Part shown: in pieces, positions 4,675-31,972 of the stretch | Layout: each line of letters starts with the position of its first letter | Numbering within the stretch: position 1 is the stretch's first letter | Assembly (NCBI GenBank): GCA_965250005.1 | Contig: OZ252279.1 | Location: 1,470,001 to 1,502,000, forward strand | Direction of reading: 5' to 3' | From: Demequinaceae bacterium | GTDB taxonomy: Bacteria; Actinomycetota; Actinomycetes; Actinomycetales; Demequinaceae | Length of the DNA: 32,000 nucleotides | Made by a program: the position numbers and the translations under genes | The notes under the pieces: generated by a model | What the model was told of the DNA's origin: nothing | Seen by the model: the letters and a program-made list of their open reading frames with translations, nothing else | Database searches by the model: none

Positions 4675-4750
4675 ACCCGAACTGTCACCAGTTCCTGCAC
4701 CAGCCCCTTCGCTGTAGCCGTAGTTTTGAATGCATGGTCGATACTCGAGC

Positions 4751-7375: not shown

Positions 7376-7439
7376 GCGGGCAAGCGGTTCGGGTGCGGTT
7401 GGAGAGGTGTTTGAGGGCAGTGCGATCAGAGGGTTGAAC

Positions 7440-13400: not shown

Positions 13401-16400
13401 GCCGCACAACTATCAAACGGAAAAGTCGACCCCGTCCTAGGTCAACTAGACCAGTTTGCGACCACAACGGTGGATTGGGCTGGCAGGGCCACCACACAAT
13501 CGACATGGTACCGAGACCCAACACTAGGCTTGTTGGAAACAAAAACAGAAACAACACGTATCGGCAATGTCACCGAAGTCACGGCAGCCTCCGGGGCCGT
13601 TACGGAAACCACCAACGACATTTTGGGTCGGCTCACAAAGCAGGTGCAGTTCGCTGAGGGCGGTGCAGATCCATTTACTACCGGATACGCGTACGAGACG
13701 TTGCCCGATGGCGGCAGCAAAGTCACAGTCACGGACCCAGACAATAATGACACCGTGTTTGAGTCGAACCTGAGTGGTCAACGCACAACCATGACGGATC
13801 CGAACTCAGGCCTGTCGACCTACACGTACGACCTGAACGGGCAAACCACATCGGTGGACTCTGAGGCTGGGTTGATCACGATGGTCTATGACGCACTCGG
13901 TCGCATGACAGATCGCACCACACTTGAGCCGGACGACACCACCGTGTCTTCGTCTGCGGCATGGGAGTTCGAAAACGAACTCGACGTTGCCGCCCCCACG
14001 GGTGCACTGAAATCGTCCACAGTTACCACGGTCATTGATGCCACGACCACTTTTGTGACGGTGCAAGCCACCGACACGTGGGACACGTTGGGGCGGCCCA
14101 CATCCACCACAACACATCTTCCGCAAGACACGGCTTCTACCGGTCCGGCATATGTGACGGACGCCTCCAGTTTGGGTGAACTTGCTGGAATCAATTACAC
14201 GCGCACCGTCGCCTATGACGAGTTGTCTCGTCCCACGGTGACATTGCCTGCCATTGCAGGCCTGCCGAAACAAACCGTTTTGACTCGGTTTAACCGGTTC
14301 GGAACACCAGTGACATTGGATGTGCTGGACAACCCCGGTGCGTCTCAAACGGTGACACCGATTGTGACGGGTATCGAGCTGGATGAGTTGGGTCGGTTGA
14401 CGTCGCGGTCCTATGCAAACACCGTGGACAGGTTGATTCAGTACGACGCCCAGTGGGGTGCACCGGAACGTATCGCCGCAGTGTTTGATCCCGGTACAGG
14501 TGACATCGCAATCCAAGATGACGTGTTTACACGGGACGATGTGGGCCGTGTGACGTCCATTCAAGACGATTCAACATATGAATCGGCAAGCCCACATGAA
14601 GCCCAGTGTTTCGTCTATGACGATCACAACCGGCTCGAAAATGCGTGGACTGAAGCTACAGATGATTTCACGGGCACGTGTGACGCTTTCCCGACGTTGC
14701 CGACCACTCAGACTGAGTGGGATGCGAGTGCATGGGCTGCGTCTGCTGGACCGTACGCAACCACCTGGGAGTATTCAGATTCGGGTCGGATTGAGTCCAT
14801 CACGAACCTCATCGAGGATGGCCTGGCGGGTTCCACAGAATCGGTGCAAGCCTTCGTGTACGACACAGATCCGGCTGATGCTGAACTGGGGCCCCTGGAC
14901 TTGCCGCATGCGGTCTCCGGTGTCGACAACGATGGCGACAGCACTGTCGATGACACATTCGAATACGACACCGCTGGACGTCAAACGGTTCGCACCGTCG
15001 ATGGGGTTACCTCCACGTTGACGTGGGATGTGTCATCCAACCTCGTCAAAGCCGTCGTCGATGACGGCACCAATGAGGCCACCTGGGTGTATGTGTATGA
15101 CGCATCCGGGCAGCGCGTCACAAAGATTCAGCTCGATGGATCGACCCCGATAGATGCGACCGCATATTTCGGTGAAACTGAAGTCACCGACACTGACACC
15201 AGCACTGATGGTGCATCAGACGTGACCGCGGTGCGGTATTACCAGTTTGGTGTCGCCGCCGTCGCACTCGAGCAGTCTGTTGAACACCCCACCACCCCCA
15301 CCGTTGAGTTGTTCTATTTGTTTGGTGACTTCCAAGGTTCAGCTCAGGTGATGATGTCTGATGCTAGAGACGTCAATGGTGACGCCGACCCAGCAAACGC
15401 GATGATTCTACGCAACGCCTACACCCCCTATGGGGCACAACGTTCGATAGATGTTGACGTAGACACCAACCCCGACCCAAACCTGCCTACCGAACGTGGC
15501 TGGCTATCCCAAGTTACCGACGAAGCCACCGACACGGCAGGCACGTTAGGCACCGGGCTGACCTATTTGAACGCCCGCTACTACGACCCGGTAACAGCAC
15601 GCTTCCTCACCCCAGACCCACTCATGAACCTTGCAGACCCGCGCACGTTGGACCCATACATGTATGCGGCGGACAACCCGGTCCTCTTCCAGGACGCTTC
15701 AGGCCTGTGTTACGAGTTTGCGGGATCGGAGAGGGCCGCATGCGAAGTGGCGAAGACGGCCGCGATTCGACCCGACCTTGGCGGCACCGATGGAGGCAGT
15801 TCAACGCAGCCTCCGGAAGATCTGGAGTCCGCCTGTTTCACGAACTCTTGGTTCGAAGAATGCAGACACGATACTTCTTCGGACGAATTCTACGAGGGAA
15901 TCGGATTCGGCGAGGGAGCATCAATTGCCGGGTGGGGTGCAGCCAACTTCTTTGTCGGTATCGCGAACGGGCTATTGTTTCCCATCAACGCCGGAAAATG
16001 TGGTTGGGACGCCCGAAGCCTAAACGTCGTCGACGCATATATCATCTGTGGACTGGGAGCCTCCTCCAACAACTCGTACTTCCCAGATGGCTGGTACTTC
16101 AACTCTGTAGGAGGCAACCCCGCCCTCTACGACCCATCGATGCACGTCGGGACAGATTTCGTCTACAACGCACCGCTACTTTTCATAGGTGGTGGAGTCG
16201 CCGCGGGGGGAAGAGGATTGGCGGCCACTGCAAGTGGGTCGCGTGGGGCTGCAGTTGCCGCACCTCGGGTCACATTCGGCCACGGGGCTCGGCACTTGGA
16301 AGGGACAGGACTGTCTGTCGCGGAAGTTGAATCCGCGATCCTGCCTCGGGTCTCCGCAGCGGTGACGGAGTCCACGACTGGGACCGCGGGCGGCTCGTTC

Positions 16401-16496: not shown

Positions 16497-16854
16497 CCGC
16501 AACGCTGGAGGACTTCGTGCCCCGACGAACGACGAGCGAGAACTGATCGCCCGGCTACTCGCCGCCGACTTCGCGGGGGCTCCTGAACTTCGACTTCAAC
16601 TGAGCACAACTCTCGTAGACTCCATCGACGACGACGGGAGCCTCGGTCTCAACCCGGAAGGCGCATCGCTAGCTGAAGTAGATCATCGGATACCCGTCGA
16701 GGCGACTTACCCCGATGCGGACGGCATGACCGTTCATGTCTTGATCCACGTGATTGACGGGCTCCTCGATGAGCTTGAGGTTTACCGAGAGGACTCCCTC
16801 CCCGTGTTGAGACCCGCAGCCGGTGCTCTCGATCTGGCGGTGGACCCGCGGTAA
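16486..16854 (+). CDS. Candidate cognate immunity protein of the main Rhs tip
   Basis: The ATG at 16486 overlaps the rhs stop by 11 bp (the ORF track opens at 16420, inside rhs). 122 aa, acidic: ..NDERELIARLLAADFAGAPELRLQL..DDDGSLGL..VHVLIHVIDGLLDELEVYREDS. From memory it resembles small DUF6984-type proteins found after toxin genes. Unverified. Confidence 0.6.
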   Translation: MCLDRNAGGLRAPTNDERELIARLLAADFAGAPELRLQLSTTLVDSIDDDGSLGLNPEGASLAEVDHRIPVEATYPDADGMTVHVLIHVIDGLLDELEVYREDSLPVLRPAAGALDLAVDPR

Positions 16855-17504
16855 GAGTGACGGTGCTCCTGGTCGCGATCCCCGCACGGGTTCACGGTCT
16901 TTGAGTCGAACATTGCCGGGCAGCGTACCAAGTTGACGGACCCAAACTCAGGCCTGTCGACCTACACGTATGACTTGAACGGTCAGACTTTGTCTGTGGA
17001 TTCCGAGACGGGTCTCATCACGATGGCCTACGACGCACTCGGTCGCATGACAGATCGCACCACACTTGAGCCGGACGACACCACCGTGTCTTCGTCTGCG
17101 GCATGGGAATTCGAAAACGAACTCGACGTTGCCGCCCCCACGGGTGCACTGAAATCGTCCACAGCTACCACGGTCATTGATGCCACGACCACTTTTGTGA
17201 CTGTGCAAGCCACCGACACGTGGGACACGTTGGGGCGGCCCACAGCCACCACAACCCATCTTCCGCAAGACACGGTTTCTACAGATCCGGCATATGTGAC
17301 GGACGCGTCCAGTTTGGGTGAACTTGCTGGCACCGACTACACGCGCACCGTCACCTACGACGAGCTGTCTCGTCCCACGGTGACACTGCCTGCCATTGCA
17401 GGCCTGCCAGCACAAACCATTGTGAACGGTTACAACCGGTTCGGAACACCAGTGACTGAACCGCCCTGGGTTTTGTTCCGATCTCTATTTGAGAGGATCG
17501 GATC

Positions 17505-17822
17505 ATGCCAAAGAGATATCCAGAGGAGTTCAAGGCCCGCGCGGTCAGGCTCGTTGACGAAGCGGTCGGCGAGGCAGGTGCCAGCGAAACGGATGCCATG
17601 TCGAGGGTTGCTACCCGTTTGGGGGTGTCAACGGAGTCTGTTAGACGGTGGCGTCGCCAGGCTCGTGTTGATTCGGGCATCGAGCGGGGCGTGACGAGTG
17701 AGGAGTCGACGGAGATGCGGCGGCTACGTCGCGAGAACACTGAGTTGAGGCGTGCAAACGAAATATTGCGGACTGCGTCAGCGTTTTTTGCAGCGGAACT
17801 CGACCGCCCCACGACGAAATGA
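17505..17822 (+). CDS. IS3-family transposase OrfA
   Basis: MPKRYPEEFKARAVRLV..VSTESVRRWRRQ..EMRRLRRENTELRRANEILRTASAFFAAELD. Confidence 0.88.
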   Translation: MPKRYPEEFKARAVRLVDEAVGEAGASETDAMSRVATRLGVSTESVRRWRRQARVDSGIERGVTSEESTEMRRLRRENTELRRANEILRTASAFFAAELDRPTTK

Positions 17823-18730
17823 TTCGATACATCGATGAGTATCGGGATCAATTCGGGGTTGAGTTCATTTGTCGCACACTTGCTGCGACACCCGGTGGGT
17901 TCATTACCTCGCGCGGCTATCGGGCCGCGAAGTTTCGGCCTCGCTCCGACAGATCAATTCGGGACGAGCAGGTCGGTGAGGCCCTGACCCAAATTCATGC
18001 TGCTAACTATTCGGTTTACGGGGTGCGTAAAATGTATGCGGCGATGCGTAGGGCCGGCTGGGATGTGGGCCGCGACCAGGTGGCCCGCCTCATGCGCAAG
18101 AGCCATTTGCGTGGGGTTAGCCGTGGCAAGAGAGTCTTCACGACCGTTACGGACCCTGCCTCGATGCGACCAGCTGACTTAGTGGAGCGGCGCTTCACCG
18201 CTAGTGGTCCGCGTGAGCTTTGGGTCGCGGACATCACCTATGTGGCCACATGGAATGGCTTCGCCTACACCGCTTTCGTCACCGACGTCTTCAGTCGCAA
18301 AATCGTCGGCTGGGCAGTATCCAGTTCGTTAACTACCCAGTCGTTGCCGTTACAGGCACTCGAGATGGCTGCCTTCATCAACGACACTGGGGAAGGTCTC
18401 ATCCATCACAGCGATATGGGCACGCAATATGTGTCCCTGGCTTACTCCGACCGCCTCACCGACCTCGGCATCACCGCTTCTGTCGGATCCCGTGGAGACA
18501 GTTACGACAACGCCCTAGCCGAGTCCGTCAACGCCGCCTACAAAGCCGAACTGATTCGTGCTCGAAAGCCCTGGCGAACCATCGAGCAAGTCGAGTTCGC
18601 AACCCTGGAATGGGTCCACTGGTTCAACACCGCCCGACTCCACGAAAACCTCGGCCACCGAACCCCAGCAGAAATCGAAACCGAGCACTACGCTCAAACC
18701 CAGAGGGCATCAGCCCTCACAACCACCTAG
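17819..18730 (+). CDS. IS3-family transposase OrfB (DDE)
   Basis: 303 aa with DDE contexts WVADITYV, HHSDMGTQY and YDNALAESVN. Lies in the -1 frame relative to OrfA. Confidence 0.9.
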   Translation: MIRYIDEYRDQFGVEFICRTLAATPGGFITSRGYRAAKFRPRSDRSIRDEQVGEALTQIHAANYSVYGVRKMYAAMRRAGWDVGRDQVARLMRKSHLRGVSRGKRVFTTVTDPASMRPADLVERRFTASGPRELWVADITYVATWNGFAYTAFVTDVFSRKIVGWAVSSSLTTQSLPLQALEMAAFINDTGEGLIHHSDMGTQYVSLAYSDRLTDLGITASVGSRGDSYDNALAESVNAAYKAELIRARKPWRTIEQVEFATLEWVHWFNTARLHENLGHRTPAEIETEHYAQTQRASALTTT

Positions 18731-20988
18731 GAACGAAACCCAGGGCGGTTCAGACATTGGACGTGTTGAATAACCCAGGTGCGTCGCAAACGGTGACACC
18801 TATTGTGACCGGTGTTGGTTTGGATGAGTTGGGTCGGTTGACGTCCCGGTCCTATGCAAACACCGTGGACAGGTTGATTCAGTACGACGCCCAGTGGGGT
18901 GCACCGGAACGTATCGCAGCAGTGTTTGATCCGGGTACAGGTGACATTGCCATCCAAGATGATGTGTTTACACGGGACGATGTTGGCCGCGTGACGTCGA
19001 TTCAAGACGATTCAACATATGAATCAGCGAACCCGCATGAGGCCCAATGTTTCGTTTATGACGGTCACAACCGGCTCGCAAATGCGTGGACTGAAGCTAC
19101 AGATGGATTCACGGGCACGTGTGACGCTTTCCCGACGTTGCCGACCACTCAGACTGAGTGGGATGCGAGTGCATGGGCTGCGTCTGCTGGACCGTACGCA
19201 ACCACCTGGGAGTATTCAGATTCGGGTCGGATTGAGTCCATCACGAACCTCATCGAGGATGGCTTGTCAGGTTCCACAGAATCGGTGCAAGCCTTCGAAT
19301 ATGACTCCGACGGTAATGGCACAGAATTGTCGGCAAACGATTTGCCGCATGCGGTTTCCGGTGTCGACAACGATGGCGACAGCACTGTCGATGACACGTT
19401 CGAATATGACACGGCTGGACGTCAAACGGTTCGCACTGTCGACGGGGTTACGTCCACGTTGACGTGGGATGTGTCATCCAACCTTGTCAAAGCCGTCGTC
19501 GATGACGGCACCAATGAAACCACCTGGGTGTATGTGTATGACGCATCCGGGCAGCGCGTCACAAAGATTCAACTCGATGGGTCAACTCCGGTAGATGCGA
19601 CTGCATATTTTGGTGAAACTGAAGTCACCGATACAGACACCAATAATGACGGTGCATCAGACGTGACTGCTGTCCGGTACTACGCATTTGGTGGTGCCAC
19701 GGTTGCGATCGAGCAGTCTGTTGAACACCCCACCAGCCCCACCGTGGACCTGTTCTACCTGTTTGGTGACTTCCAAGGCTCCGCACAGGTGATGATGTCT
19801 GATGCGAGAGACGTCAACGGTGACGCCGACCCAGCAAACGCAACAATCCTGCGCAACGCCTACACCCCCTATGGGGCACAGCGTTCGATAGATGTTGACG
19901 TCGACACCAACCCCGACCCAAACTTGCCTACCGAACGTGGCTGGCTATCCCAAGTCAGGGACGAAGCCACCGACACGGCAGGCACGTTAGGCACAGGGCT
20001 GACATATTTGAACGCCCGCTACTACGACCCGGTAACAGCACGCTTCCTATCCCCAGACCCACTCATGAACCCCCAGGACCCGCGCACGTTGGATCCGTAC
20101 ATGTATGCGGCCAACAACCCGATCCTCTTCCAGGACGCTACAGGCTTGTGCTACGGGCTGATAGGTCAGGCAATGGCAACATGCCAACAAGACAAAACGG
20201 CCGCATGGACGACGTTCACCAAAGCACAAGTGCCGACCACACCAAAGTACAAGGACCTTCCGGAGTCGGTGCAACAGAGCATGTGTGCCAGCGGTGAGGT
20301 TACCGGACACGCATGCAACGCTGACGTCACCAAGGATGATTTTGACCAGTCGATCGGATTCACCGAGGGTCTAGGAATCGTCGGAAACGGGTTCACGAAC
20401 CTTGGGGCAGGAGTTGTTGATGGAGTGACGGGCACCCTGGACCTTGCGGTAGATGTTGTCGCAAACCTTGGTCGACCGTGGTGCACTGGCGACGTTCTCG
20501 GTATTACGAGCGGGACCTGGGGGTGCGTTGATGTAACGGACATAGCCAAAATAGGGGTGGTCGGAGACCCGGACGTATACGGGCTCGTTCACGCATACGG
20601 CACCGTTTTGGGTTCGACGGCAACTCTTGCTGGCGGCGGCGCCGCGATTGGCGCGGGCAGGGCTGGTAGCGCGACCATCGCTACGGAAGTAAATCTTCCG
20701 CGATCCCTCACGCCCTTCTGGCGGACTTCCCCAACTACGTCGGCCGCTTTGCGCGCAAATCCAATTATTGGCGAGGCGGGTAAGTTTGCGCCATTTGCGC
20801 GCGGAGGGTGGCTCAACAACAACAACTATCTGCGAACGGGTTGGAGTTGGATGGGGACCAATGCCTCTGGCACTAACGTTTTTCGTACGGCGATTGGAAA
20901 CAACTCGATAGGGAAAATCCACCTGAATTGGTTCACGTAGACACCTGGGCATCAGATACTGTGATTGCCGACCACGAAAGGGCACCGG

Positions 20989-21405
20989 ATGGGCGCAAAA
21001 AGCCAATACTTCGATCTCACAATCGACGAGATATCTCGCCATTTTGAGGTGCGCGAGCTTGAGCCAAGCCCGGATGGGCCGCTGCGTGCAGTGTCTGTGC
21101 GCAATGCTGGCGATGGCGGAAGGACGTGCGAGGTCAACACGCCGGACGGATACGAAGCGCATGTTTATGCCGAGGGACTCCATTTTGACGATACGTTGCG
21201 AGGCGCAGCGTCAACACATGTCGTCCGTCTTGTGCGCGGGTACATGGAGAATGGCGCGACCGAGAGCACTCGCCGCCGCTGGTTTGGTGTCGTTCGCGTC
21301 GTCAGCGTGGATACGCCGGGTGGGGCAACCTACAACCTCGAGGAGTGGGGCCCCTTTTCTCGCGTCCGCGTGACCGATGCCCGGCGGCCGAGCGAGGGCG
21401 ATTGA
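20989..21405 (+). CDS. Candidate immunity protein for the O1 tip
   Basis: The ATG at 20989 follows AAAGGG (the ORF track opens at a TTG at 20965). 138 aa, 48 bp after the O1 stop, same strand. No recognisable family (MGAKSQYFDLTIDEISRHFEVRELEPSPDG..). Confidence 0.5.
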   Translation: MGAKSQYFDLTIDEISRHFEVRELEPSPDGPLRAVSVRNAGDGGRTCEVNTPDGYEAHVYAEGLHFDDTLRGAASTHVVRLVRGYMENGATESTRRRWFGVVRVVSVDTPGGATYNLEEWGPFSRVRVTDARRPSEGD

Positions 21406-21547
21406 GCCCGCGGACCCTTCTGCTGGACTATTCGACCAACGGATCAGTGGATCCGGTGCAATAATTCAAGTACGACTTTGACGGCGACATTTTCGGAATT
21501 GCGGCCACCGGAGAAGTGTATCGCCCCGGGTTTGGTGGAGGCTTTCA

Positions 21548-21889
21548 TTGCAGGGAAGGATGAGGACTATGGGAGCACCGAGGAAGTATTCGCCGGAACT
21601 TAGGGAGCGGGCGACACGGTTGGCGCTTGATGCGAGACGGGACCCGGCGACGAGCCGGGGGTCGATGGCGAGGATTGCTGACCAGTTGGGGATCCATCGG
21701 GAGTCGTTGCGGACGTGGGTGAGGCGCGCGGAGGTGGATGGGGGGCATCGTCCGGGGACCACGACCGATGATGCGTCGAGGATCGCGGTGTTGGAGCGTG
21801 AGGTTCGAGAGTTACGTCGAGCGAATGCGATCTTGAAGAGTGCTTCGGCTTTCTTCGCGGCGGAGCTCGACCGCCCACCGACACGATGA
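21548..21889 (+). CDS. IS3-family transposase OrfA
   Basis: ..GAPRKYSPELRERATRLAL..IHRESLRTWVRR..VLEREVRELRRANAILKSASAFFAAELD. Identical to the protein encoded at 28015-28356 (minus strand). Confidence 0.88.
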   Translation: MQGRMRTMGAPRKYSPELRERATRLALDARRDPATSRGSMARIADQLGIHRESLRTWVRRAEVDGGHRPGTTTDDASRIAVLEREVRELRRANAILKSASAFFAAELDRPPTR

Positions 21890-22803
21890 TCACCTACATT
21901 GACGAGAACAAGGATGTCTTCGGGGTCGAGCCGATCTGTGCACAGTTGCCGATCGCCCCAGCGACGTACTATGCGGCCCGGTCGCGGCCGCCGTCGGTCA
22001 GAGCCGTCCGGGACGCGGGTCTTCTCGTCTTGATCCGTGAAATCCATGCCGAGAACTACGGTGTGTATGGGGTACGGAAAGTCCATGGTGAACTGGTTCG
22101 GCGAGGTCACCGGGTTGCTCGGTGCACCGTAGAACGTCTCATGCGTCGGAAGGGTTTGCGAGGTATTGCCCGGGTGAAGTCTCCTCGCACGACAATCCCT
22201 GGGGGCGAAACGGAACGTCCCTTGGACCTCGTGGATCGCCAGTTCAGGGCCGAACGTCCTGACCAGTTGTGGGTCGCGGACATCACCTACATTCGCACCT
22301 TCAGTGGCTGGGCTTACGCAGCGTTCGTGATCGATGTGTGCTCCCGACGGGTCGTCGGCTGGCAACTGTCGACGTCGCTACGCACCGACCTGGCTTTGGA
22401 TGCCTTAGAGATGGGGTTGTGGTCGCGGCATCGTGACGGGCGAGACGTGACTGCTCTGATTCATCACAGTGACAGGGGCGTTCAATATCGAGCTATCCGC
22501 TACACGCAACGCCTCTGCGAGGCGGGTGTCGTCGCTTCCGTCGGTTCCCGCGGCGACTCCTACGACAACGCCCTCGCGGAAGCCTTCAACTCGCTATTCA
22601 AAGCCGAGCTGGTCCGAAACCGGGGGCCCTGGAGATCCATCACCGACCTCGAGATCGCGGTCGTCGAATATATCGACTGGTTCAACCACCGACGCCTCCA
22701 CGGCGAGATTGGACACGTCCCACCAGTCGAATACGAGCAAGCCCACTACGCTTCACAGAACAACCCCGCGCCGAACCCGGAGCGGGCATTCACGAGTCTC
22801 TAA
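21886..22803 (+). CDS. IS3-family transposase OrfB (DDE)
   Basis: 305 aa with DDE contexts WVADITYI, HHSDRGVQY and YDNALAEAFN. I see two differences from the copy at 27101-28018 (HAENYG vs HAKNYG; RRKGLRG vs RREGLRG). Confidence 0.9.
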   Translation: MITYIDENKDVFGVEPICAQLPIAPATYYAARSRPPSVRAVRDAGLLVLIREIHAENYGVYGVRKVHGELVRRGHRVARCTVERLMRRKGLRGIARVKSPRTTIPGGETERPLDLVDRQFRAERPDQLWVADITYIRTFSGWAYAAFVIDVCSRRVVGWQLSTSLRTDLALDALEMGLWSRHRDGRDVTALIHHSDRGVQYRAIRYTQRLCEAGVVASVGSRGDSYDNALAEAFNSLFKAELVRNRGPWRSITDLEIAVVEYIDWFNHRRLHGEIGHVPPVEYEQAHYASQNNPAPNPERAFTSL

Positions 22804-22821
22804 CAAACCCGGGGCGATACA

Positions 22822-23590
22822 CCTGCAATCTTGGTGCGCCACGCAGGCATGCTGGGAGCAGTCTCGCCCCGATTCGCAGCGACAAATTGCGTGGGATGCG
22901 CTCATGGCATCTCCAAAGAACAAGGCGACCCTCGTGGCCGGGCAGGGCAACGGCATCGTAAGGGGTGTTTGGGGGGCGGTGACATATGCTCCGAGTAAGG
23001 CGTTCGAGGGCCTCGCATGTTTTTTCATGTCTGGCCCGAATGGGTGCCGCGAGTACCAAAAGAACGTGGCGCAAGTGCAACGGGACGAAGCAAGTGAGCT
23101 GGCTACTAATTGGTGGGGCAGCACCCGATCGGCAGCTAGCGTGGCGTCGGGCTCGAAGAGCCTCGACGACCACTGGGCGGATACGTTGCCGTGGGTACGC
23201 GAGTACACTTACGGTCCTGGACTTGACGCGTTTGACAGGCAGGACTTCTTCACAGTGGGCACGGAACTTGGCAAGGGCGAAGTACTTGTTGCAAGTATCG
23301 CCTTCGGAGTTAGGAAACTGCCATCATTGCGAAGCTCAAGTTCGACTCGCGCGCTGTCAGTGTCGGACCAACGTGGCGTGGCATCGTTGCAGCGTAGAAT
23401 GCAGGAGCATCAAATCAAGTTGAGAGAGTACGTTGCCGACCCTAGGTCGTTCGACAATACTGGACGCCTCGCCGGAGCCCAGACCGCAGCAATTGAAGAA
23501 CTCATCATCGCTGGACGCATTCGTACTTTGGAACACGATATTCGAGTCTTCCAAACACAGATCGACGACATCCTTGGAGCAGGGCAATGA
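22822..23590 (+). pseudogene. Orphan toxin tip O2, cut off from any rhs core by IS copy A
   Basis: The frame is open from the IS junction. It reads (G)LQSWCATQACWEQ.., the same position and style as GLCYEFAGSERAACE and GLCYGLIGQAMATCQ in the other copies. About 256 aa, ending ..HQIKLREYVADPRSFDNTGRLAGAQTAAIEELIIAGRIRTLEHDIRVFQTQIDDILGAGQ. The upstream part of ORF 22469-23590 is only an alternate frame of the transposase gene. Confidence 0.7.
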
Positions 23591-23886
23591 CAGACCAAAT
23601 TAGAATCAGTATCGAACTTCTGGAGCGCGTCTACCCAATTCTTATCAGTCACCTGCGGGAGATCGAAGGAGAAGAGGTCAGTCTGGAAGATGATTACTTC
23701 TGGTCGATTCCTCGAGACCAAATTGGTGCCGTCGAAAGCTCCCCGACCGACCTCAACATAGGTCAAATCTCGGAATGTCTGGAGTGGCTATCAGGAATCG
23801 AGGAAAACTCTGAGGGTGCGCTGACGTATCACCTAGTTTGGCTGGCGGATGTGCTCCGGGCCATCGGCTATGCGGTTGTCAAATGA
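23587..23886 (+). CDS. Candidate immunity protein for the O2 tip
   Basis: 99 aa, acidic. Its start overlaps the O2 stop (ATGA at 23587-23590) and follows GGAGCAGGG. Noticeably AT-richer than its surroundings: I count 25 G/C in its first 60 nt. Confidence 0.6.
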   Translation: MTDQIRISIELLERVYPILISHLREIEGEEVSLEDDYFWSIPRDQIGAVESSPTDLNIGQISECLEWLSGIEENSEGALTYHLVWLADVLRAIGYAVVK

Positions 23887-23958
23887 GACGGTGCGGGCTC
23901 GTGCGCGGCTACGAATCAAGCGGTGGGCGCTTGCGATTTCGTGACTGACGCAAACGTC

Positions 23959-26059
23959 GTGGGGTGCACCGGAACGTATTGCAGCAGTGTTTGATCCCGG
24001 TTCGGGTGACGTTGCGATCCAAGATGATGTGTTTACACGGGATGATGTTGGCCGCGTGACGTCGATTCAAGACGATTCAACATATGAATCGGCAAACCCA
24101 CATGAAGCCCAATGTTTCGTCTATGACGGCCACAACCGGCTCGCAAACGCCTGGACTGAAGCAACAGATGGATTCACGGGCACGTGTGACGCTTTCCCGT
24201 CGTTGCCGACCACTCAGACTGAGTGGGATGCGAGTGCATGGGCTGCGTCTGCTGGCCCGTACGCAACCACTTGGGACTATTCGGATTCGGGTCGGATTGA
24301 GTCCATCACGAACCTCATCGAGGATGGCTTGTCAGGTTCCACAGAATCGGTGCAGGCCTTCGAATATGACTCCGACGGTAATGGCACAGAATTGTCGGTA
24401 AACGATTTGCCGCATGCGGTTTCCGGTGTCGACAACGATGGCGACAGCACTGTCGATGACACGTTCGAATATGACACCGCTGGCCGTCAAACGGTTCGCA
24501 CTGTCGACGGGGTTACGTCCACGTTGACGTGGGATGTGTCATCCAACCTTGTCAAAGCCGTCGTCGATGACGGCACCAATGAAACCACCTGGGTGTATGT
24601 GTATGATGCATCCGGGCAGCGGATCACAAAGATTCAACTCGATGGGTCAACTCCGGTAGATGCGACCGCATATTTTGGGACTACCGAAGTCACCGACACC
24701 GATACAAGTGCTGATGGTGCTTCAGACGTGACTGCTGTCCGGTACTACGCATTTGGTGGTGCCACGGTCGCCCTCGAGCAGTCGACTGAACACCCCACCA
24801 GCCCCACCGTGGACCTGTTCTACCTGTTTGGTGACTTCCAAGGCTCCGCACAGGTGATGATGTCTGATGCTCGAGACGTCAACGGTGACGCCGACCCAGC
24901 AAACGCAACAATCCTGCGCAACGCCTACACCCCCTATGGGGCACAGCGTTCGATAGATGTTGACGTCGACACCAACCCCGACCCAAACCTGCCCACCGAA
25001 CGTGGCTGGCTATCCCAAATCACCGACGAAGCAACCGACACCGCAGGTACCCTCGGCACTGGGCTGACATATTTGAACGCCCGCTACTATGACCCCGTAA
25101 CGGCACGCTTCCTATCACCAGACCCACTCATGAACCCCCAGGACCCGCGCACGTTGGATCCGTACATGTATGCGGCCAACAACCCGATCCTCTTCCAGGA
25201 CGCTACAGGCTTGTGCTACGGGCTGATAGGTCAGGCAATGGCAACATGCCAACAAGACAAAACGGCCGCATGGACGACGTTCACCAAAGCACAAGTGCCG
25301 ACCACACCAAAGTACAAGGACCTCCCGGAGTCGGCGCAACAGAGCATGTGTGCGAACGGTGAGGTCACCGGACACGCATGCAACGCTGATGTTACCTCGG
25401 ACGATTTTGATCAGTCGATTGGTTTTTCTGAGGGCGCAGCAATCGTCGGAAACGGGTTCGCGAACCTTGGCGCAGGAGTTGTTGATGGAGTGACGGGCAC
25501 CCTGGACCTTGGGGTAGATATCGTCGCGAACCTTGGCCGACCATGGTGCACCGGCGACGTCTTGGGCATCACCAACGGTACATGGGGGTGCGTTGACGTA
25601 ACGGACATCGCCAAAATTGGCGTCATTGGCGACCCAGGTGTATACGGGTTTGTCCACGCATACGGCACCGTTTTGGGTTCGACGGCAACTCTCGCTGGCG
25701 GCGGAGCCGCATTCGGCGCGGCCAGAGCGGGCATAACGGGAGCGACAGCGACCACAGTAGGCGGCTCCTCGTCGATAGTCTCCGCAGCGGCCGCCGGACG
25801 GGGTATGTACTCGCTTGGAAGTGCGACACAGGCGGCAACTCACAGAGCAGGGGCTGCTTGGGTCGGAGCTGGGGCGACTTGGAGCTCCAGCGGGCGCGCG
25901 CTCGTGGCCGCGAATCGATTGCGGCAGTACAGGCCGCCTAATTGGAAAGACAACTGGGGACAGTGGCAGGCGAATTTCGAATCTCGGGGGCTTCCAACGG
26001 GCCCCTGGGTGAATAATGGCCACATGACCGTTACAAATATTCCGCCGGTGTTGCCATGA
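23959..26059 (+). pseudogene. Orphan rhs 3' fragment O3 with a third alternative toxin tip
   Basis: Colinear with the main gene from about 14453 onward (..WGAPERIAAVFDPGSGDVAIQDDVFTRDDVGRVTSIQDD.. through ..DPYMYAANNPILFQDATGL). The tail starts at 25214. It shares its first ~165 aa with the O1 tail, then diverges. No signal peptide or N-terminal domains. Confidence 0.88.
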
Positions 26060-26406
26060 GAAGCGAACTTCGAGCCTTCGAGTTCTCGCTTTCGGAAAGC
26101 GAGGTACGCGAACTCGAGGGCAGTGATCGCGTGTACGCGCCCGCGCGAATATACGTGGGTCAGCATGGTGGTGTAGGTGAGGAATCCTTCGACTTCATCG
26201 TTTGTACACCCCTAGGGCTAGCTCAACAGCTTGAAGCTGAGGACGTAGTGGATGGTCGTCACCACTTCGTTGTGGCGCGCTTTGAAGAGAACATGTTCGT
26301 CGAATGGATCCGAACGAAGGTCGCAGGCTGCGAAGGTCCGGACTGGAGTGCGGTCGCCCTCAAGCTCTCGCGTTTAGGAATGTGGGAGTATGAGGACTAC
26401 CATTAG
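26056..26406 (+). CDS. Candidate immunity protein for the O3 tip, Imm8-like
   Basis: 116 aa. Its start overlaps the O3 stop (ATGA at 26056-26059). ..ESFDFIVCTPLGLAQQL..GRHHFVVARFEENMFVEWI..LSRLGMWEYEDY matches my memory of the Imm8 polymorphic-toxin immunity family. Needs HMM confirmation. Confidence 0.6.
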   Translation: MRSELRAFEFSLSESEVRELEGSDRVYAPARIYVGQHGGVGEESFDFIVCTPLGLAQQLEAEDVVDGRHHFVVARFEENMFVEWIRTKVAGCEGPDWSAVALKLSRLGMWEYEDYH

Positions 26407-26454
26407 CAACTGCTCTACGCCGATACCCCTTCGGCTTCGCTGCTGGCATGGGGC

Positions 26455-27082
26455 CGACCCTGGTGTGGGCGTGCGGTCCACACCCGTGACAGTCACCTCC
26501 GCCCAACATGCAGGCTACGACGCGGCCGCCAATGCCGGTGCCGGCGACTGGGCATGCCAAGAAGCTGCATGCTTCGTCAACCGTTCCCACATGTTCCTCG
26601 ATGGATGGGGGCGTGCCGTCGAACAGCACCGTGTTGCACCAGACGGATCCGGTGGACGGCTAGTCTCAGCAACCCGCTACAACAAACTCGGGCACATCGA
26701 CTTTTCTGCCTCAACATTCTGGAACGAAGACGCCGCACAGCTGTCGAACGGAAAAGTCGACCCCGTTCTGGGTCAACTAGACCGGTATGCCACGGCAACC
26801 CTGGATTGGGCTGGCAGGGCTACCACCCAGTCGGCGTGGTTCCGCGACCCAACGCTGGGCTTGTTGGAAACAAAAACTGAAACAACACGTATCGGCAATG
26901 TCACCGAGGTCACGGCAGCCTCCGGGGCCGTTACGGAAACCACCAACGACATTTTGGGTCGGCTCACAAAGCAGGTGCAGTTCGCTGAGGGCGGTGCAGA
27001 TCCATTTACTACCGGATACGCGTACGAGACGTTGCCCGATGGCGGCAGCAAGGTGACAGTCACGGACCCGGACAATAATGAC
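26455..27082 (+). pseudogene. Orphan rhs fragment O4 (internal core piece), truncated by IS copy B
   Basis: GVGVRSTPVTVTSAQHAGYDAAANAGAGDWACQEAACFVNRSHMFLDGWGRAVEQHRVAPDG..GGSKVTVTDPDNND is colinear with main-gene ~13124-13751. It ends exactly at the IS end. Confidence 0.88.
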
Positions 27083-27100
27083 TGTATCGCCCCGGGTTTG

Positions 27101-28018
27101 TTAGAGACTCGTGAATGCCCGCTCCGGGTTCGGCGCGGGGTTGTTCTGTGAAGCGTAGTGGGCTTGCTCGTATTCGACTGGTGGGACGTGTCCAATCTCG
27201 CCGTGGAGGCGTCGGTGGTTGAACCAGTCGATATATTCGACGACCGCGATCTCGAGGTCGGTGATGGATCTCCAGGGTCCCCGGTTTCGGACCAGTTCGG
27301 CTTTGAATAGCGAGTTGAAGGCTTCCGCGAGGGCGTTGTCGTAGGAGTCGCCGCGGGAACCGACGGAAGCGACGACGCCGGCCTCGCAGAGGCGTTGCGT
27401 GTAGCGGATAGCTCGATATTGAACGCCCCTGTCACTGTGATGAATCAGAGCAGTCACGTCTCGCCCGTCACGATGCCGCGACCACAATCCCATTTCCAGG
27501 GCATCCAGGGCCAGGTCGGTGCGTAGCGACGTAGACAGTTGCCAGCCGACGACCCGTCGGGAGCACACATCGATCACGAACGCCGCGTAGGCCCAGCCAC
27601 TGAAGGTGCGAATGTACGTGATGTCCGCGACCCACAACTGGTCAGGACGTTCGGCCCTGAATTGGCGATCCACGAGGTCCAAGGGACGTTCCGTTTCGCC
27701 CCCAGGGATCGTCGTGCGAGGAGACTTCACCCGGGCAATACCTCGCAAACCCTCCCGACGCATGAGACGTTCTACGGTGCACCGAGCAACCCGGTGACCT
27801 CGCCGAACCAGTTCGCCATGGACTTTCCGTACCCCATAGACACCGTAGTTCTTGGCATGGATTTCACGGATCAAGACGAGAAGACCCGCGTCCCGGACGG
27901 CTCTGACCGACGGCGGCCGCGACCGGGCCGCATAGTACGTCGCTGGGGCGATCGGCAACTGTGCGCAGATCGGCTCGACCCCGAAGACATCCTTGTTCTC
28001 GTCAATGTAGGTGATCAT
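27101..28018 (-). CDS. IS3-family transposase OrfB (DDE)
   Basis: 305 aa, near identical to the protein encoded at 21886-22803. Confidence 0.9.
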   Translation of the reverse strand: MITYIDENKDVFGVEPICAQLPIAPATYYAARSRPPSVRAVRDAGLLVLIREIHAKNYGVYGVRKVHGELVRRGHRVARCTVERLMRREGLRGIARVKSPRTTIPGGETERPLDLVDRQFRAERPDQLWVADITYIRTFSGWAYAAFVIDVCSRRVVGWQLSTSLRTDLALDALEMGLWSRHRDGRDVTALIHHSDRGVQYRAIRYTQRLCEAGVVASVGSRGDSYDNALAEAFNSLFKAELVRNRGPWRSITDLEIAVVEYIDWFNHRRLHGEIGHVPPVEYEQAHYASQNNPAPNPERAFTSL

Positions 28019-28356
28019 CGTGTCGGTGGGCGGTCGAGCTCCGCCGCGAAGAAAGCCGAAGCACTCTTCAAGATCGCATTCGCTCGACGTAGCTCTCGAA
28101 CCTCACGCTCCAACACCGCGATCCTCGACGCATCATCGGTCGTGGTCCCCGGACGATGCCCCCCATCCACCTCCGCGCGCCTCACCCACGTCCGCAACGA
28201 CTCCCGATGGATCCCCAACTGGTCAGCGATCCTCGCCATCGATCCCCGGCTCGTCGCCGGGTCCCGTCTCGCATCAAGCGCCAACCGTGTCGCCCGCTCC
28301 CTAAGTTCCGGCGAATACTTCCTCGGTGCTCCCATAGTCCTCATCCTTCCCTGCAA
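28015..28356 (-). CDS. IS3-family transposase OrfA
   Basis: 113 aa, identical to the protein encoded at 21548-21889. Confidence 0.88.
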   Translation of the reverse strand: MQGRMRTMGAPRKYSPELRERATRLALDARRDPATSRGSMARIADQLGIHRESLRTWVRRAEVDGGHRPGTTTDDASRIAVLEREVRELRRANAILKSASAFFAAELDRPPTR

Positions 28357-28387
28357 TGAAAGCCTCCGCCAAACCCGGGGCGATACA

Positions 28388-28449
28388 CAGTGTTTGATCC
28401 CGGTACAGGTGACGTTGCCATCCAGGATGACGTGTTTACACGTGACGAT
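28388..28449 (+). pseudogene. 62-bp rhs fragment O5 trapped between two IS elements
   Basis: cagtgtttgatcccggtacaggtgacgttgccatccaggatgacgtgtttacacgtgacgat encodes VFDPGTGDVAIQDDVFTRDD and corresponds to main-gene 14479-14540. Confidence 0.85.
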
Positions 28450-28510
28450 GGAGCCGACCCCGCTTTTCCGGACACATGACTTGGGATGATGTTCCCGAGA
28501 GGAGTTCGGA

Positions 28511-28779
28511 ATGCCACAAGCGAAACCGCCGGAGTTTAGGCGTCGAGCATTGGATTTGGTGCGTCAGGGAGAGCCGGTCGCGCAGGTTGCGAGCGGGCTT
28601 GGGATCAGTGAGTCGTGTTTGCGGCGGTGGATGAAGCAAGACGACATTAACGCGGGCCGTGTTGAAGGTCTCACGACTGAGGAGCGACGCGAGTTGGTGC
28701 AGTTGCGCCGCAAGAATCGGGTGCTTCAGATGGAGAACGAAATCTTGAAGCGTGCTTCTGCATATTTTGCGCGGGAGAA
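28511..28779 (+). pseudogene. Transposase OrfA of IS type d, interrupted near its 3' end
   Basis: MPQAKPPEFRRRALDLVRQGEPVAQVASGLGISESCLRRWMKQ..LRRKNRVLQMENEILKRASAYFARE. The reading frame then runs into the nested IS. Rejoining the two sides gives ..AREN VLPK stop. Confidence 0.85.
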
Positions 28780-28849
28780 GGGGCTGGTGCAGGGATAGGT
28801 GACAACTGACTTCTGGGACCTGGGAGGGTCTTGGTGGAAGGATGTTGTT

Positions 28850-29149
28850 ATGCCTAAAGTTTTTCCTGAGGAGTTTCGCCGTGACGTGGTTGCGGTTGCC
28901 CGGCGCCGTGAGGCGTCTCAGAAGCAGATTGCCGAGGATTTCGGGATCTCGCATGCGACGTTGTCGAATTGGTTGCGTCAAGCCAACATCGAGGACGGTG
29001 ACAAACCTGGTGTGAGCCGTGAGCGAGCCGAACAGGTGCGGGAGTTGCGTCGGCGTAATCGGTTGCTCGAGCAAGAGAACGAGGTTTTGCGGCGTGCGGC
29101 CGCTTACTTGTCGCAGGCCAATCTCAAACTCGGTGGCCACCCAAAATGA
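28850..29149 (+). CDS. IS3-family transposase OrfA (copy 2 of type a)
   Basis: Identical to the protein encoded at 3503-3802. Confidence 0.85.
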   Translation: MPKVFPEEFRRDVVAVARRREASQKQIAEDFGISHATLSNWLRQANIEDGDKPGVSRERAEQVRELRRRNRLLEQENEVLRRAAAYLSQANLKLGGHPK

Positions 29150-30021
29150 TCTACCCGCTCGTCCGCGAGCTGGCCGTCGACGGTGTTCCCGTCGCGGTGA
29201 CGTGTCGGGTGCTGAAGATTGCTCGCCAGCCGTACTACCGGTGGCGAAGCGAACCAGTTACGGCATTGGACTGGGTGCAAGCGCATCGCATGAACGCGCT
29301 CATTGACGCGCACCGTGACGACCCAGAGTTCGGCTACCGGTTCCTCGCGGACGAGGCCGTGGTAGCCGGATGGCCGATGGTGCGCAGGACCGCATGGTCC
29401 TTGGCGTCGCAGGCGGGTTTGGTGTCAACGACACAGCGTCGCAAGAGAGGCAAGGCAGGCAAACCCGGTCCACCCGTGTTCGATGACCTCGTGCAACGTG
29501 TCTTCACCGCCCAGAGCCCAAATCAGGTGTGGCTGACGGACATCACGGAGCACCCCACCAGTGAAGGCAAACTCTACCTGTGCGCCATCAAGGACCTGTA
29601 CTCGAACCGCATCGTCGGCTACTCACTCAGTGACCGAATGCAAGCCCAGTTGGCTGTGAACGCCCTGGCCAACGCCGTCGCGTCCCGCGGCGACGTCACT
29701 GGATGCATCCTGCACGCCGATAGGGGATCTCAATTTCGTTCCCGCAAAATGGGTCACGCACTGAACCGTCACGGCATGGTCGGCTCCATGGGTCGAGTAG
29801 GTGCCGCCGGCGACAACGCCGCAATGGAATCCTTCTTCAGCCTGCTCCAAAAAAACGTCCTGAACCGGCAACGCTGGGACACCCGCCAGGAACTCCGCAT
29901 CGCGATCATCACCTGGATCGAACGCACCTACCACCGCCGCCGCCGACAAGACCGACTCGGACGCTTGACCCCCATCGAATACGAGACCATCATGAACACA
30001 CAAATGGCCCTCGCGGCCTAA
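29146..30021 (+). CDS. IS3-family transposase OrfB (copy 2 of type a)
   Basis: 291 aa, identical to the protein encoded at 3799-4674. Confidence 0.9.
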   Translation: MIYPLVRELAVDGVPVAVTCRVLKIARQPYYRWRSEPVTALDWVQAHRMNALIDAHRDDPEFGYRFLADEAVVAGWPMVRRTAWSLASQAGLVSTTQRRKRGKAGKPGPPVFDDLVQRVFTAQSPNQVWLTDITEHPTSEGKLYLCAIKDLYSNRIVGYSLSDRMQAQLAVNALANAVASRGDVTGCILHADRGSQFRSRKMGHALNRHGMVGSMGRVGAAGDNAAMESFFSLLQKNVLNRQRWDTRQELRIAIITWIERTYHRRRRQDRLGRLTPIEYETIMNTQMALAA

Positions 30022-30057
30022 ACCCGAACTGTCACCAGTTCCTGCACCAGCCCCGAA

Positions 30058-30960
30058 CGTGCTCCCAAAATAGGTTTCCGGCTCGTCCACGAGCTCAGCC
30101 GCGACGGTATCCCCGTCGCGGTGGCGTGCCAAAAACTTGGCGTTTCTCGTGCCGGCTACTACGAGTGGTTAGGCAGGGCCCCGTCACGGCGTGCGGTCGC
30201 GGATCGGACACTCACGGAGGTGATTTGTCGGATCCATCGTGACTCGCGGGGCACGTATGGTGCGAAACGTATCCACGACGAACTTTCAATCGAGCACGGT
30301 GTGGCCTGCAGCCGTAAACGGGTGGCCCGACTGTTGCGTGAAGCGGGCCTGCGAGGCGTGTCACACGGGCGTAAACGGCGTGGATGGGCCCCAGCAGCAA
30401 CCACCCATGACGACCTTGTCAAACGCCAGTTCCGAGCCGATCAGCCTGACCGGATCTGGTTTACGGACATCACGCAGCATCGCGCGCGTGATGGTTGGGT
30501 TTACTGCTGCGCCGTTGTTGATGCTTTCTCCCGCCGTGTCGTGGGCTGGTCTATTGCTGACCGACCCACCGCCGAACTCGTCACGGACGCCCTGGAAATG
30601 GCCCGCTGGCAACGCCGACCCCGGCCCGGAACTATTGTTCACGCCGATCGCGGAGCGCAATACACGAGTTGGATCTTCGGACACCGATTACGTGAAGCGG
30701 GGCTCCTGGGTTCCATGGGACGAGTCGCCTCCAGCGTGGACAACGCCCTCATCGAATCATTCTGGTCAACCATGCAACGCGAACTACTCGACCGCCAGTC
30801 CTGGGACAGTCGTATCGAACTGGCTGCAGCAATTTTCGAATGGATCGAAGGGTTCTACAACCCCCGCCGACGCCACACCGCCCTGACCGATCACCGCGGA
30901 CGCTCCGTCAGCCCCGCCACGTTTGAAGCACTTCACACCCGTGCCCAAATAGCGGCATAA
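30058..30960 (+). pseudogene. Transposase OrfB segment of IS type d (separated from its OrfA by the nested IS)
   Basis: After the C CCA AAA heptamer at 30064-30070 the -1 frame reads KIGFRLVHELSRDGIPVAVACQKLGVSRAGYYEW.., parallel to the OrfB N terminus of type a. DDE contexts WFTDITQH, VHADRGAQY and VDNALIESFW. The ORF-track start at 30121 is internal. Confidence 0.85.
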
Positions 30961-31000
30961 TCAACACACACCCCGTGTCCGGAAAAGCGGGGTCGGCTCC

Positions 31001-31384
31001 CCCATTGGCGACTTGCTGTTCTTTGTCGCTGACTGGTTAAACGCGGAGGAGCACTACAATGGAGTGGGCGTCGAACCAGGCCTGGCCCTTGAATTGGGGG
31101 GGCGCGAAGCCCTGGTCGGGTTGACGGCTGGTCTTGGAACAGAGGCGGCCTTGTCGCCCGGGGTAGCGTTTGTTTGTGGAGCTAGTGTGGGCGTAGCTTG
31201 CCCGGGCGTCGTCGTCGTGGCAAATCTTATAAGTTGGGGAGTTGAAGAAATCTCGGTCTCCGGCGTACGGTCCGAATTCGACTGTATGTTTGCGAATATT
31301 TGTTCACCAGGATTCTTCAGAGACTTCCCGGATCCAACTCCGTCACCGGGCCCGGATCCTAATTTATACTGGGAAGGTCGCTAG
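31001..31384 (+). pseudogene. 5'-truncated ORF abutting the IS type d end; possible remnant of a further toxin tip
   Basis: The frame is open from the IS junction: PIGDLLFFVADWLNAEEHYNGVGVEPGLALELGGREALVGLTAGLGTEAALSPGVAFVCGASVGVACPGVVVVANLISWG..PDPNLYWEGR. It is rich in Gly/Ala/Val with hydrophobic stretches. No credible start or ribosome-binding site of its own. Confidence 0.4.
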
Positions 31385-31414
31385 GTCTGGTCATACGCGT
31401 TCAGGGAGGAATCC

Positions 31415-31972
31415 GTGTTTCGGAGAATCGTTTACGCCAGTCTTCTTGTCGCGCTGCTCGGCACGGCTGGATGTGGAACGCTCGCCAATCCCTTTGGGCC
31501 GCGGGAGCCAAAGCCGGTGCTCATCGTTCCGGATGAGACCGGAGGTATGACAATCTCGGTGCCGCTGTGCGTGGGCGATGAAGACTTTTCGGTCGGTGTC
31601 GGGGGATACAACGGCGTCCGCGATCGCGGCGTTGACTACTTGCTTGAAGGTGCCTCCACACGAACCGAGACAATCGTTCTGCGTCTAACCGTCGACACCA
31701 TCCTGGCTGGCGCGCTTACCGATCAGTTGCCGTTGGCTCCATGGGCCGCCGCATACGAAGCAGACTTCAACTCGGTGGCCGATGCTGGGTTGTTCTACGT
31801 ACGCGGCAAACTATTCTACGAGGCGGTCTACATGTCGGACCTGCCGCTCGCTGGCTCAAACCCAGTGATTCTTGGACTTGCACCGGGCACTGCTCTTGAA
31901 CCCGAATTCGAACCTACGACCGCTGAAGCGGGATTGACTGTCATCGAAGATTGGTGCGAGGGTCTGCTGTAG
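31415..31972 (+). CDS. Putative lipoprotein (possible immunity protein for the truncated upstream tip)
   Basis: The GTG at 31415 follows GGGAGGA. N terminus MFRRIVYASLLVALLGTAGCGT has a signal peptide and a lipobox-like TAGC. 185 aa, no recognisable family. Confidence 0.6.
   Translation: MFRRIVYASLLVALLGTAGCGTLANPFGPREPKPVLIVPDETGGMTISVPLCVGDEDFSVGVGGYNGVRDRGVDYLLEGASTRTETIVLRLTVDTILAGALTDQLPLAPWAAAYEADFNSVADAGLFYVRGKLFYEAVYMSDLPLAGSNPVILGLAPGTALEPEFEPTTAEAGLTVIEDWCEGLL

Follow-up and report, generated by a model that had tools for sequence, protein, structure and literature searches.

Background

Polymorphic Rhs toxins with exchangeable tips have been described in both Bacillus and enterobacteria. 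WapA of Bacillus subtilis, a Sec-exported, wall-associated Rhs/YD toxin, starts with a signal peptide and ends in a polymorphic toxin; an immunity gene (WapI) lies next to it, and the tips are tRNases. In E. coli, elements resembling insertion sequences (IS) are known from within rhs loci. In Salmonella LT2, recombination across 522 bp at 95% identity, following a duplication, moves an orphan tip onto the full-length gene, and the prior duplication preserves the main immunity gene (PMC3967940). Orphan Rhs tips of Salmonella also have internal promoters and behave much like toxin-antitoxin systems (PMC7043789). Among the known immunity families, it is Imm8 that accompanies Ntox7 most often, both on Rhs proteins and on other toxins, those of Actinobacteria included (Zhang et al. 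2012, PMC3482391). Here we analyze a stretch of 32,000 nucleotides (the window; contig OZ252279.1, positions 1,470,001 to 1,502,000) from a Demequinaceae bacterium, which very probably contains a polymorphic Rhs toxin locus: one rhs gene of full length and the displaced 3' ends of other alleles with their immunity genes, later invaded by IS elements. The layout itself is that of an ordinary orphan rhs-CT/immunity array; what is new is the host phylum, the IS damage and the un-named toxin families. All coordinates below are positions in the window.

A full-length rhs gene followed by displaced 3' ends

Orphan fragments were defined by a BLASTN self-comparison of the whole window, with the main rhs gene as reference (Table 1). 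All five core alignments are in direct orientation with the main gene, at 88-93% identity and far past chance. They lie, nearly to the base, where a preliminary description, made from the sequence alone, had placed several stretches matching the final third of the main gene in colinear order. That description treated O1 as one colinear stretch; the homology is real, but IS-C interrupts it, and this element accounts for the 1.3 kb by which O1 exceeds the corresponding part of the main gene. The N-terminal delivery part of the main gene (7368-13123) has no BLASTN homology anywhere downstream, so that the orphans indeed lack the N-terminal domains. As had also been claimed, no signal peptide is visible in them by eye, the possible N-termini MFDPGSG... 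and MTDPNSG... included. The statement that they lack start codons went too far: in-frame GTG and TTG starts are present, and the public annotation calls proteins of 667 (O3), 715 (O1b) and 228 (O2) residues, together with genes for imm2, imm3 and the lipoprotein-like open reading frame (ORF) further downstream. No orphan contains a stop or frameshift, and the O3 frame is open over 690 codons.

The main protein begins with a segment that resembles a signal peptide, as judged by eye, followed by a PEPS-rich tract. For its start codon, ATG 7440 (MGRVRLGLVAVFVAAALVVSG) is more likely than GTG 7368. FG-GAP repeats (PF13517, FG-GAP_3, 1.8e-14) and a weak SpvB-like match were found with Pfam; YD repeats match TIGR01643 (YD_repeat_2x, 2.3e-6), and the RHS-associated core matches TIGR03696 at residues 2729-2780 (1.8e-11). 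The core closes with DPYMYAADNPVLFQDASGL at about residue 2780, leaving a tip of approximately 260 residues. In the Pfam scan of this protein, neither PAAR nor any other domain of type VI secretion was matched, and no cell-wall-binding domain was detected. Within the gene, the PEPS-rich tract is encoded by a 12-bp tandem repeat of about six copies (7569-7657), which could permit variation in its length.

O1 and O3 have the core-end motif DPYMYAANNPILFQDATGL in common. Identity between the main gene and the orphans is about 90% along the core, drops to 67% at the core-end motif and to roughly 45-55% past it. The preliminary description had the copies keep this motif and then diverge completely. 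The motif is indeed kept in O1 and O3, but these two remain 92.8% identical for a further ~510 bp, and the main tip resembles the O1 tip at 31% identity over about 90 residues. With colinear fragments on the same strand, the TIGR03696 core on the main protein, O1 and O3, immunity-type ORFs behind the tips and the same layout in relatives, the orphan rhs-CT/immunity arrangement first proposed for this locus is borne out. An assembly artefact was considered as the source of the array and rejected: every copy has flanks of its own, and divergence between the copies is 7-12%. The spacers 3' of the immunity genes were compared with one another and have nothing in common.

Table 1. Features of the rhs locus, with coordinates in the 32,000-nucleotide window
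Feature	Coordinates	Strand or position	Remarks
Full-length rhs gene	7368-16496	+	From ORF list; 3042 codons counted from GTG 7368
Terminal toxin domain of main tip	16254-16496	+	~80 residues; invariant F-G-H-G-x-R-H-L, E, Y-R-A
imm0, candidate immunity gene for main tip	16486-16854	+	122 residues from ATG 16486; 11-nt overlap with rhs stop
O1a	16893-17456 (main 13751-14314)	+	BLASTN 89.4%; begins 38 bp 3' of imm0
O1b	18753-20940; core 18753-20155 (main 14312-15714)	+	BLASTN 90.5%; TIGR03696 3.8e-14
imm1, candidate immunity gene for O1	20989-21405	+	138 residues from ATG 20989 (TTG 20965 possible); AAAGGG resembling a ribosome-binding site (RBS)
O2, tip only	22822-23590	+	255 codons open from IS-B1 boundary; core lost at or near GL motif
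imm2, immunity-type partner of O2 tip	23587-23886	+	99 residues; ATGA overlap 23587-23590
O3, intact orphan	23959-26059; core 23959-25220 (main 14453-15714)	+	BLASTN 88.4%; TIGR03696 3.2e-14
imm3, Imm8-family immunity gene	26056-26406	+	116 residues; ATGA overlap 26056-26059; C-terminal WEY
O4, core fragment without tip	26455-27082 (main 13124-13751)	+	BLASTN 92.7%; flush cut by IS-B2
O5, 63-bp core remnant	28388-28450 (main 14479-14541)	+	92%, E 4e-20; between IS-B2 and IS-D
IS-A1	3433-4707	upstream of rhs gene	Target duplication TTC
IS-C	17457-18752	+	1296 bp; orfA 17505-17822, orfB 17819-18730; TG..CA ends; target duplication GAC; splits O1
IS-B1	21517-22821	+	orfA 21548-21889, orfB 21886-22803; no target duplication; right end abuts O2 tip
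IS-B2	27083-28387	-	98.1% identical to IS-B1, inverted relative to it; no target duplication
IS-D	28451-31000	+	26-bp inverted ends; no target duplication; hosts nested IS-A2
IS-A2	28780-30054	inside IS-D	Target duplication GAA; 100% identical to IS-A1
Open frame from IS-D boundary	31001-31384	+	127 codons; Gly/Ala-rich, hydrophobic peak
Lipoprotein-like ORF	31415-31972	+	185 residues; strong RBS GGAGG; annotated gene in public record

IS3-family elements within the array

The main structural feature of the array, overlooked in the preliminary description, is the presence of five IS copies: IS-C, IS-B1, IS-B2, IS-D and, nested, IS-A2. These elements belong to the IS3 family. In each of the four types scanned (IS-A2, IS-B1, IS-C and IS-D), Pfam identified HTH_Tnp_1 in orfA and rve in orfB, the two frames overlapping; orfA and orfB of IS-B2 differ from those of IS-B1 at only a few residues. 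All copies have inverted repeat ends, of the form TG...CA in IS-B and IS-C. In the self-BLASTN, the repeat at 21516-22821 is the reverse complement of 27083-28388 at 98.1% identity, and IS-C is related to this pair at about 70%. Target duplications flank IS-C, IS-A1 and IS-A2 and are absent from IS-B1, IS-B2 and IS-D, which indicates that at least some of the latter three were involved in later rearrangements. The end of IS-B1 is also the start of the O2 tip, and the whole O2 core was thus lost there; O5 is what remains between IS-B2 and IS-D.

O4 ends and O1 starts at the same position of the main gene, 13751, found in the window at 27082 and 16893, respectively. When O4, O1a and O1b are joined in silico, with IS-C and one copy of GAC removed, a single open frame of 1124 codons results, extending past the core motif as far as the stop codon of O1. 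The common breakpoint and the open joined frame indicate that a single orphan has been divided into O4 and O1, in which O4 is probably the 5' part missing from O1. The halves are today 9.5 kb apart and their order is swapped. IS-B2 abuts the O4 side of the breakpoint only, and the O1 side carries no IS scar. A simple insertion, an inversion between the copies and a composite-transposon hop were each tried as accounts of the IS-B1 and IS-B2 flanks, and none of them yields matching target duplications.

Three further observations concern the elements themselves. IS-A1 and IS-A2 are identical copies of 1275 bp in direct orientation that flank the entire rhs locus; if these two recombined, about 24 kb would be lost, the main gene and almost the whole array included. 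A stretch of 37 bp upstream of the rhs gene (4809-4845) is 89% identical to an internal segment of IS-B close to the right end of the element (22715-22751 and 27153-27189) and may be the relic of a further IS-B copy. Finally, an ORF of 373 codons (22469-23590) starts within IS-B1 and crosses the end of the element in frame into the O2 tip. Read-out transcription from IS-B1 could drive the series O2 tip, imm2, O3 and imm3.

Toxin tips and their immunity-type partners

Four distinct terminal domains can be told apart when the expressed main tip is included, three of them among the orphans. To this extent the earlier suggestion of at least four stored weapons holds, but only O1b and O3 keep a core together with a complete tip. 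None of the tips has a Pfam or NCBIfam match, and a concatenated query of the tips matched the main toxin domain only. Each tip is followed by a small ORF, two of which start at ATGA overlaps with the tip stop codon, as had been described. All five small ORFs of the locus show gene-like GC content by codon position, and purine runs resembling an RBS precede most of them. A concatenated query of these five found nothing, probably owing to a word-index limit, given that Imm8 relatives certainly exist. Three of the four pairs are conserved elsewhere (main tip/DUF6984, O2 tip/imm2 and O3 tip/Imm8), the O1 pair being the exception.

The terminal domain of the main tip recurs at the end of ten Rhs proteins in other bacteria, with an identity of 53-73%, and the residues H, R, H, E, Y and R do not vary. 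There is no Pfam match to this domain, and a sequence search of the PDB returned nothing meaningful. Its AlphaFold2 model (pLDDT 83.7), compared with the PDB by Foldseek, gave HigB2, RelE, CdiA-CT EC3006 of E. coli and BrnT as top matches, all of them weak (best E 8.5e-3, TM 0.5). On the strength of this predicted RelE/HigB/BECR-like fold, the main-tip toxin is probably an RNase. The ORF that follows, imm0, is a DUF6984 protein (Pfam, 1.2e-11) and the probable immunity protein of the main tip; the pairing of this domain with a DUF6984 ORF suggests that DUF6984 is an immunity family. This toxin domain, with the pattern FGHGxRH...E...YRA (16254-16496), occurs on Rhs proteins of several phyla and has no Pfam family.

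Between the core and the terminal domain, the tips of O1 and O3 have a linker of about 170 residues in common, extending in O1 from 20155 to ~20666 and in O3 to ~25731. Over their whole common stretch (18894-20666 and 23959-25731, reaching ~510 bp beyond the core motif) O1 and O3 are 92.8% identical, and the two tips are distinct solely in their last ~91 (O1, ~20665-20940) and ~109 (O3) residues. The similarity between the main and O1 tips lies in their first ~90 residues (E 1e-6). The linker is rich in Gly and Ala with weakly hydrophobic stretches, and in the main, O1 and O3 tips it ends in a motif resembling GGGxAxGxxRxG. These features could describe a two-tier tip, in which the common linker would serve as a membrane-entry module and its final motif as a second recombination joint, such that only the last ~90-110 residues of toxin and the immunity gene are exchanged; this would be a single-membrane Rhs counterpart of the split between entry domain and toxin in CdiA-CT. 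We offer this as a tentative and rather doubtful proposal. A role of the linker in cell entry is a guess, and the hydrophobic segments are weak.

The O2 tip is unrelated to those of the main gene, O1 and O3. Its last ~85 residues form a conserved C-terminal domain with 427 relatives at E<=1e-3. Among the matches listed, the proteins range from 69 to ~2500 residues and have this domain at their C-terminal end or close to it; some of them have RHS and FG-GAP repeats, and in one relative (P0136) it stands behind an Rhs core end. The domain has no Pfam or PDB match; its AlphaFold2 model is a helical hairpin of two long helices (pLDDT 86.5), whose structural neighbors were uninformative. In 17 of 26 metagenome loci with an O2-type domain (L004-L029), a homolog of imm2 starts no more than a few bases from the stop codon of the toxin; these homologs have 95-106 residues and 26-46% identity, with E-values down to 1e-30. 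The O2-type domain and imm2 thus look like a widespread, un-named toxin/immunity pair. The consensus of the domain (23330-23587) reads ...EH..KL.AYR.DPDAFDN.G.L.NAP..EIRQ.IIDGRIRHLE.EI..FQ.QID.ILGG.

Over its final 59 residues, the O3 tip is 52.5% identical to the product of 9332-9508 in a metagenome contig (L002), located there immediately 5' of an Imm8 gene. No Pfam or NCBIfam model matched the O3 terminal domain, in search libraries that possibly lack an Ntox7 model. Its partner imm3 was the one protein recognized as Imm8-like in the preliminary description, correctly so (PF15586, 1.4e-21), and is 43% identical to the neighbor in L002. For the O1 terminal domain, homolog searches and tblastn against plasmids found no relatives; imm1 found none either in Pfam, NCBIfam, a homolog search and the same tblastn, and its position makes it a candidate immunity gene for O1.

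The frame at 31001-31384 had been mentioned as a possible further tip. It was considered as a fifth tip and not accepted, its similarity to the main linker being insignificant (E 0.10); Pfam and homolog searches found no homologs. It may be the remnant of a fifth tip.

Divergence of the copies and arrays in relatives

To get an evolutionary perspective on the array, we compared the main gene with O4+O1 and with O3, and O1 with O3, over core and linker. By the Nei-Gojobori method, the ratio of non-synonymous to synonymous divergence (dN/dS) is 0.10-0.15, at a dS of 0.18-0.43. The low ratios, together with the open frames, indicate that the copies were under translation as they diverged, whether in other lineages or at other loci, and are not duplicates decaying in place. 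Between the main gene and O4/O1 there are runs of perfect identity of 143 and 156 nt, where ~55 nt is estimated for a uniform identity of ~90%; the longest such run between the main gene and O3 is 55 nt. The long runs suggest, without proving, exchange between the main gene, O4 and O1.

The nearest named homologs of the core come from Demequinaceae, Cellulomonadaceae, Demequina and Microbacterium, and relatives carry PF05593 and PF25023. A scan of genome contigs with the core returned a single distant Demequinaceae contig end. Two metagenome contigs from one sample (L002 and L003) have the same architecture as the array described here. Along 21.5 kb of L002 there are at least nine core-3' fragments, and small ORFs accompany each of them, RNAse_A_bac/CdiI_2 and Imm8 neighbors included; L003 holds a main-gene end and two orphans. 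IS3-family elements are present in both. At 764-1643 of L002, a tip ORF of the RNAse_A_bac family is followed by a CdiI_2 immunity ORF, and it follows that the lineage uses toxin families in common with contact-dependent inhibition systems.

Proposed history and alternative explanations

According to the explanation that we favor, the complete gene would encode a secreted FG-GAP/YD protein, with an Rhs shell extending to the DPxGL motif and then a tip composed of Gly/Ala linker and toxin. The displaced alleles would originally have been at least O2, O3, O4+O1 and O5, each with its own immunity gene. By the precedent of Salmonella and E. coli, the delivery part would acquire a new tip when the main core undergoes homologous recombination with the direct-repeat core of O1b or O3, and orphan immunity genes would protect against kin that use those tips. 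A simple crossover between the direct repeats would delete the intervening DNA. Five IS3-family insertions would later have split O1, stripped O2 of its core, parted O4 from O1 and reduced O5 to a stub. Since the core of O2 and the tip of O4 are missing and O5 measures 63 bp, only O1b (1.40 kb of core) and O3 (1.26 kb) would appear usable for core-mediated swapping today. Several points weigh against this explanation. What the toxins do is guessed from the predicted fold (best Foldseek E 8.5e-3), with no activity assigned to the remaining tips, and no relatives of the O1 tip or of imm1 were detected. IS-B1, IS-B2 and IS-D lack target duplications. That tips are silent while immunity genes are expressed would be an assumption. 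Finally, swapping may be rare, considering that the cores are 88-90% identical, against 95% over 522 bp in Salmonella.

An identity of only 88-90% to the main gene, and perfect runs with O3 of no more than 55 nt, would also suit a different account, in which the fragments have no current role and are kept by recency, with IS elements accumulating because insertions there cost nothing. The state of the array fits such an account, with five IS elements in ~15 kb, O1 interrupted, O2 coreless, O4 tipless and O5 reduced to 63 bp. However, all tips and immunity ORFs that are present are still open, and 1124 and 690 orphan codons contain no stop or frameshift. The pairs are moreover conserved elsewhere and longer arrays exist in relatives, neither of which proves function in this genome. 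We consider it unlikely that the fragments are idle in this sense. In a second account, the orphans would be expressed: tip and immunity gene, transcribed from internal promoters, could act as intracellular addiction modules resembling toxin-antitoxin systems, as has been reported for main and orphan rhs tips in Salmonella (PMC7043789). The in-frame starts, the annotated 667-, 715- and 228-residue proteins of O3, O1b and O2, the ATGA overlaps that couple translation of tip and immunity gene, and the ORF that enters the O2 tip in frame from IS-B1 are all consistent with this. The promoter scan gave it no support, and kilobases of open core would be left unexplained. Sites matching promoter and terminator consensus sequences were no more frequent than in shuffled sequence, those for the sigma-70 consensus being even fewer; this consensus does not cover actinobacterial promoters. 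Such addiction modules seem to us quite improbable as the explanation of the array.

A third account would make a composite transposon of the block 22822-27082, the inverted IS-B1 and IS-B2 moving toxin/immunity cassettes between them, and would explain the swapped order of O4 and O1. In its favor, the two 98%-identical copies bracket O2 tip, imm2, O3, imm3 and O4; O4 ends flush at IS-B2 while its continuation O1 lies upstream of IS-B1; and with the block removed, the outer flanks resemble a normal junction of immunity gene, spacer and orphan. However, the outer flanks (AAG and CAG) are no matching target duplication, and an inversion between the IS-B copies leaves the duplications unrestored. 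Both outer ends are left inverted repeats (IRL), whereas IS3-family transposition pairs IRL with the right inverted repeat (IRR), and no second copy of the block is known. It is highly improbable that the block moved in this way.

Neighboring genes

Directly upstream of the rhs gene lies an ORF of 672 residues (5357-7375) with a hydrophobic N-terminus and no Pfam match, the 3' end of which overlaps the rhs GTG start by 8 nt; it may encode an accessory protein co-transcribed with rhs. At the edge of the island, just 5' of IS-A1, a C-5 cytosine DNA methylase gene (1297-2637, + strand; PF00145, 6e-70) is convergent with an HNH_2 endonuclease ORF (2593-3378, - strand), a pair that looks like a restriction-modification system. 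The lipoprotein-like ORF at the other end of the window has no cluster mates at 90% identity.

Comparison with known systems

The findings leave the general understanding of orphan Rhs systems unchanged. They extend the orphan-cassette layout to a small-genome actinobacterium (one contig of 2.0 Mb) and to uncultured relatives; in the literature searched, we found no description of this layout in such small-genome actinobacteria or their relatives. The array is also a clear example of IS elements breaking and reordering stored cassettes, and so limiting which of the stored tips remain usable. Two widespread pairs without a Pfam toxin family were recognized, the FGHGxRH domain with DUF6984 and the O2-type helical hairpin (427 relatives) with imm2.

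Like WapA/WapI, the main gene encodes an Rhs/YD toxin with a signal-peptide-like N-terminus, a variable tip and an adjacent candidate immunity gene in a single-membrane host. Unlike in WapA, no cell-wall-binding domain was matched; the likeness noted here concerns architecture. The FG-GAP repeats with the weak SpvB match resemble the TcdB/TcaC-type architecture listed by Zhang et al. (PMC3482391). As in CdiA-CT, an N-terminal tip module is common to different toxins (in O1 and O3), and the C-terminal toxin that it precedes is short and variable; as in cdiA-CT/cdiI loci, orphan tip/immunity modules lie downstream of the main gene. The delivery protein, however, is an Rhs shell instead of a two-partner-secretion filament, and no sequence relation was found. 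With respect to Ntox7/Imm8, imm3 is a clear member of Imm8 and bears the C-terminal motif of W, E and an aromatic residue given in the family description (PMC3482391), whereas the O3 terminal domain matches no Pfam or NCBIfam model.

The closest likeness is to the enterobacterial rhs-CT/rhsI arrays of E. coli, Salmonella and Dickeya, for which a model of C-terminal displacement exists. In both, a full gene is followed by 5'-truncated cores in the same orientation, with a core end of the PxxxxDPxGL type, differing tips, a small immunity-type gene for each and core homology that would allow recombination. Compared with Salmonella, the core homology is longer here (1.26-1.40 kb versus 522 bp) and more diverged (88-90% versus 95%). 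The present locus further differs from the enterobacterial arrays in its actinobacterial host and in the absence of a PAAR or type VI match, and it stands apart from them by its signal-peptide-like N-terminus with FG-GAP repeats, the common linker of ~170 residues in its tips and the heavy cutting by IS3-family elements.

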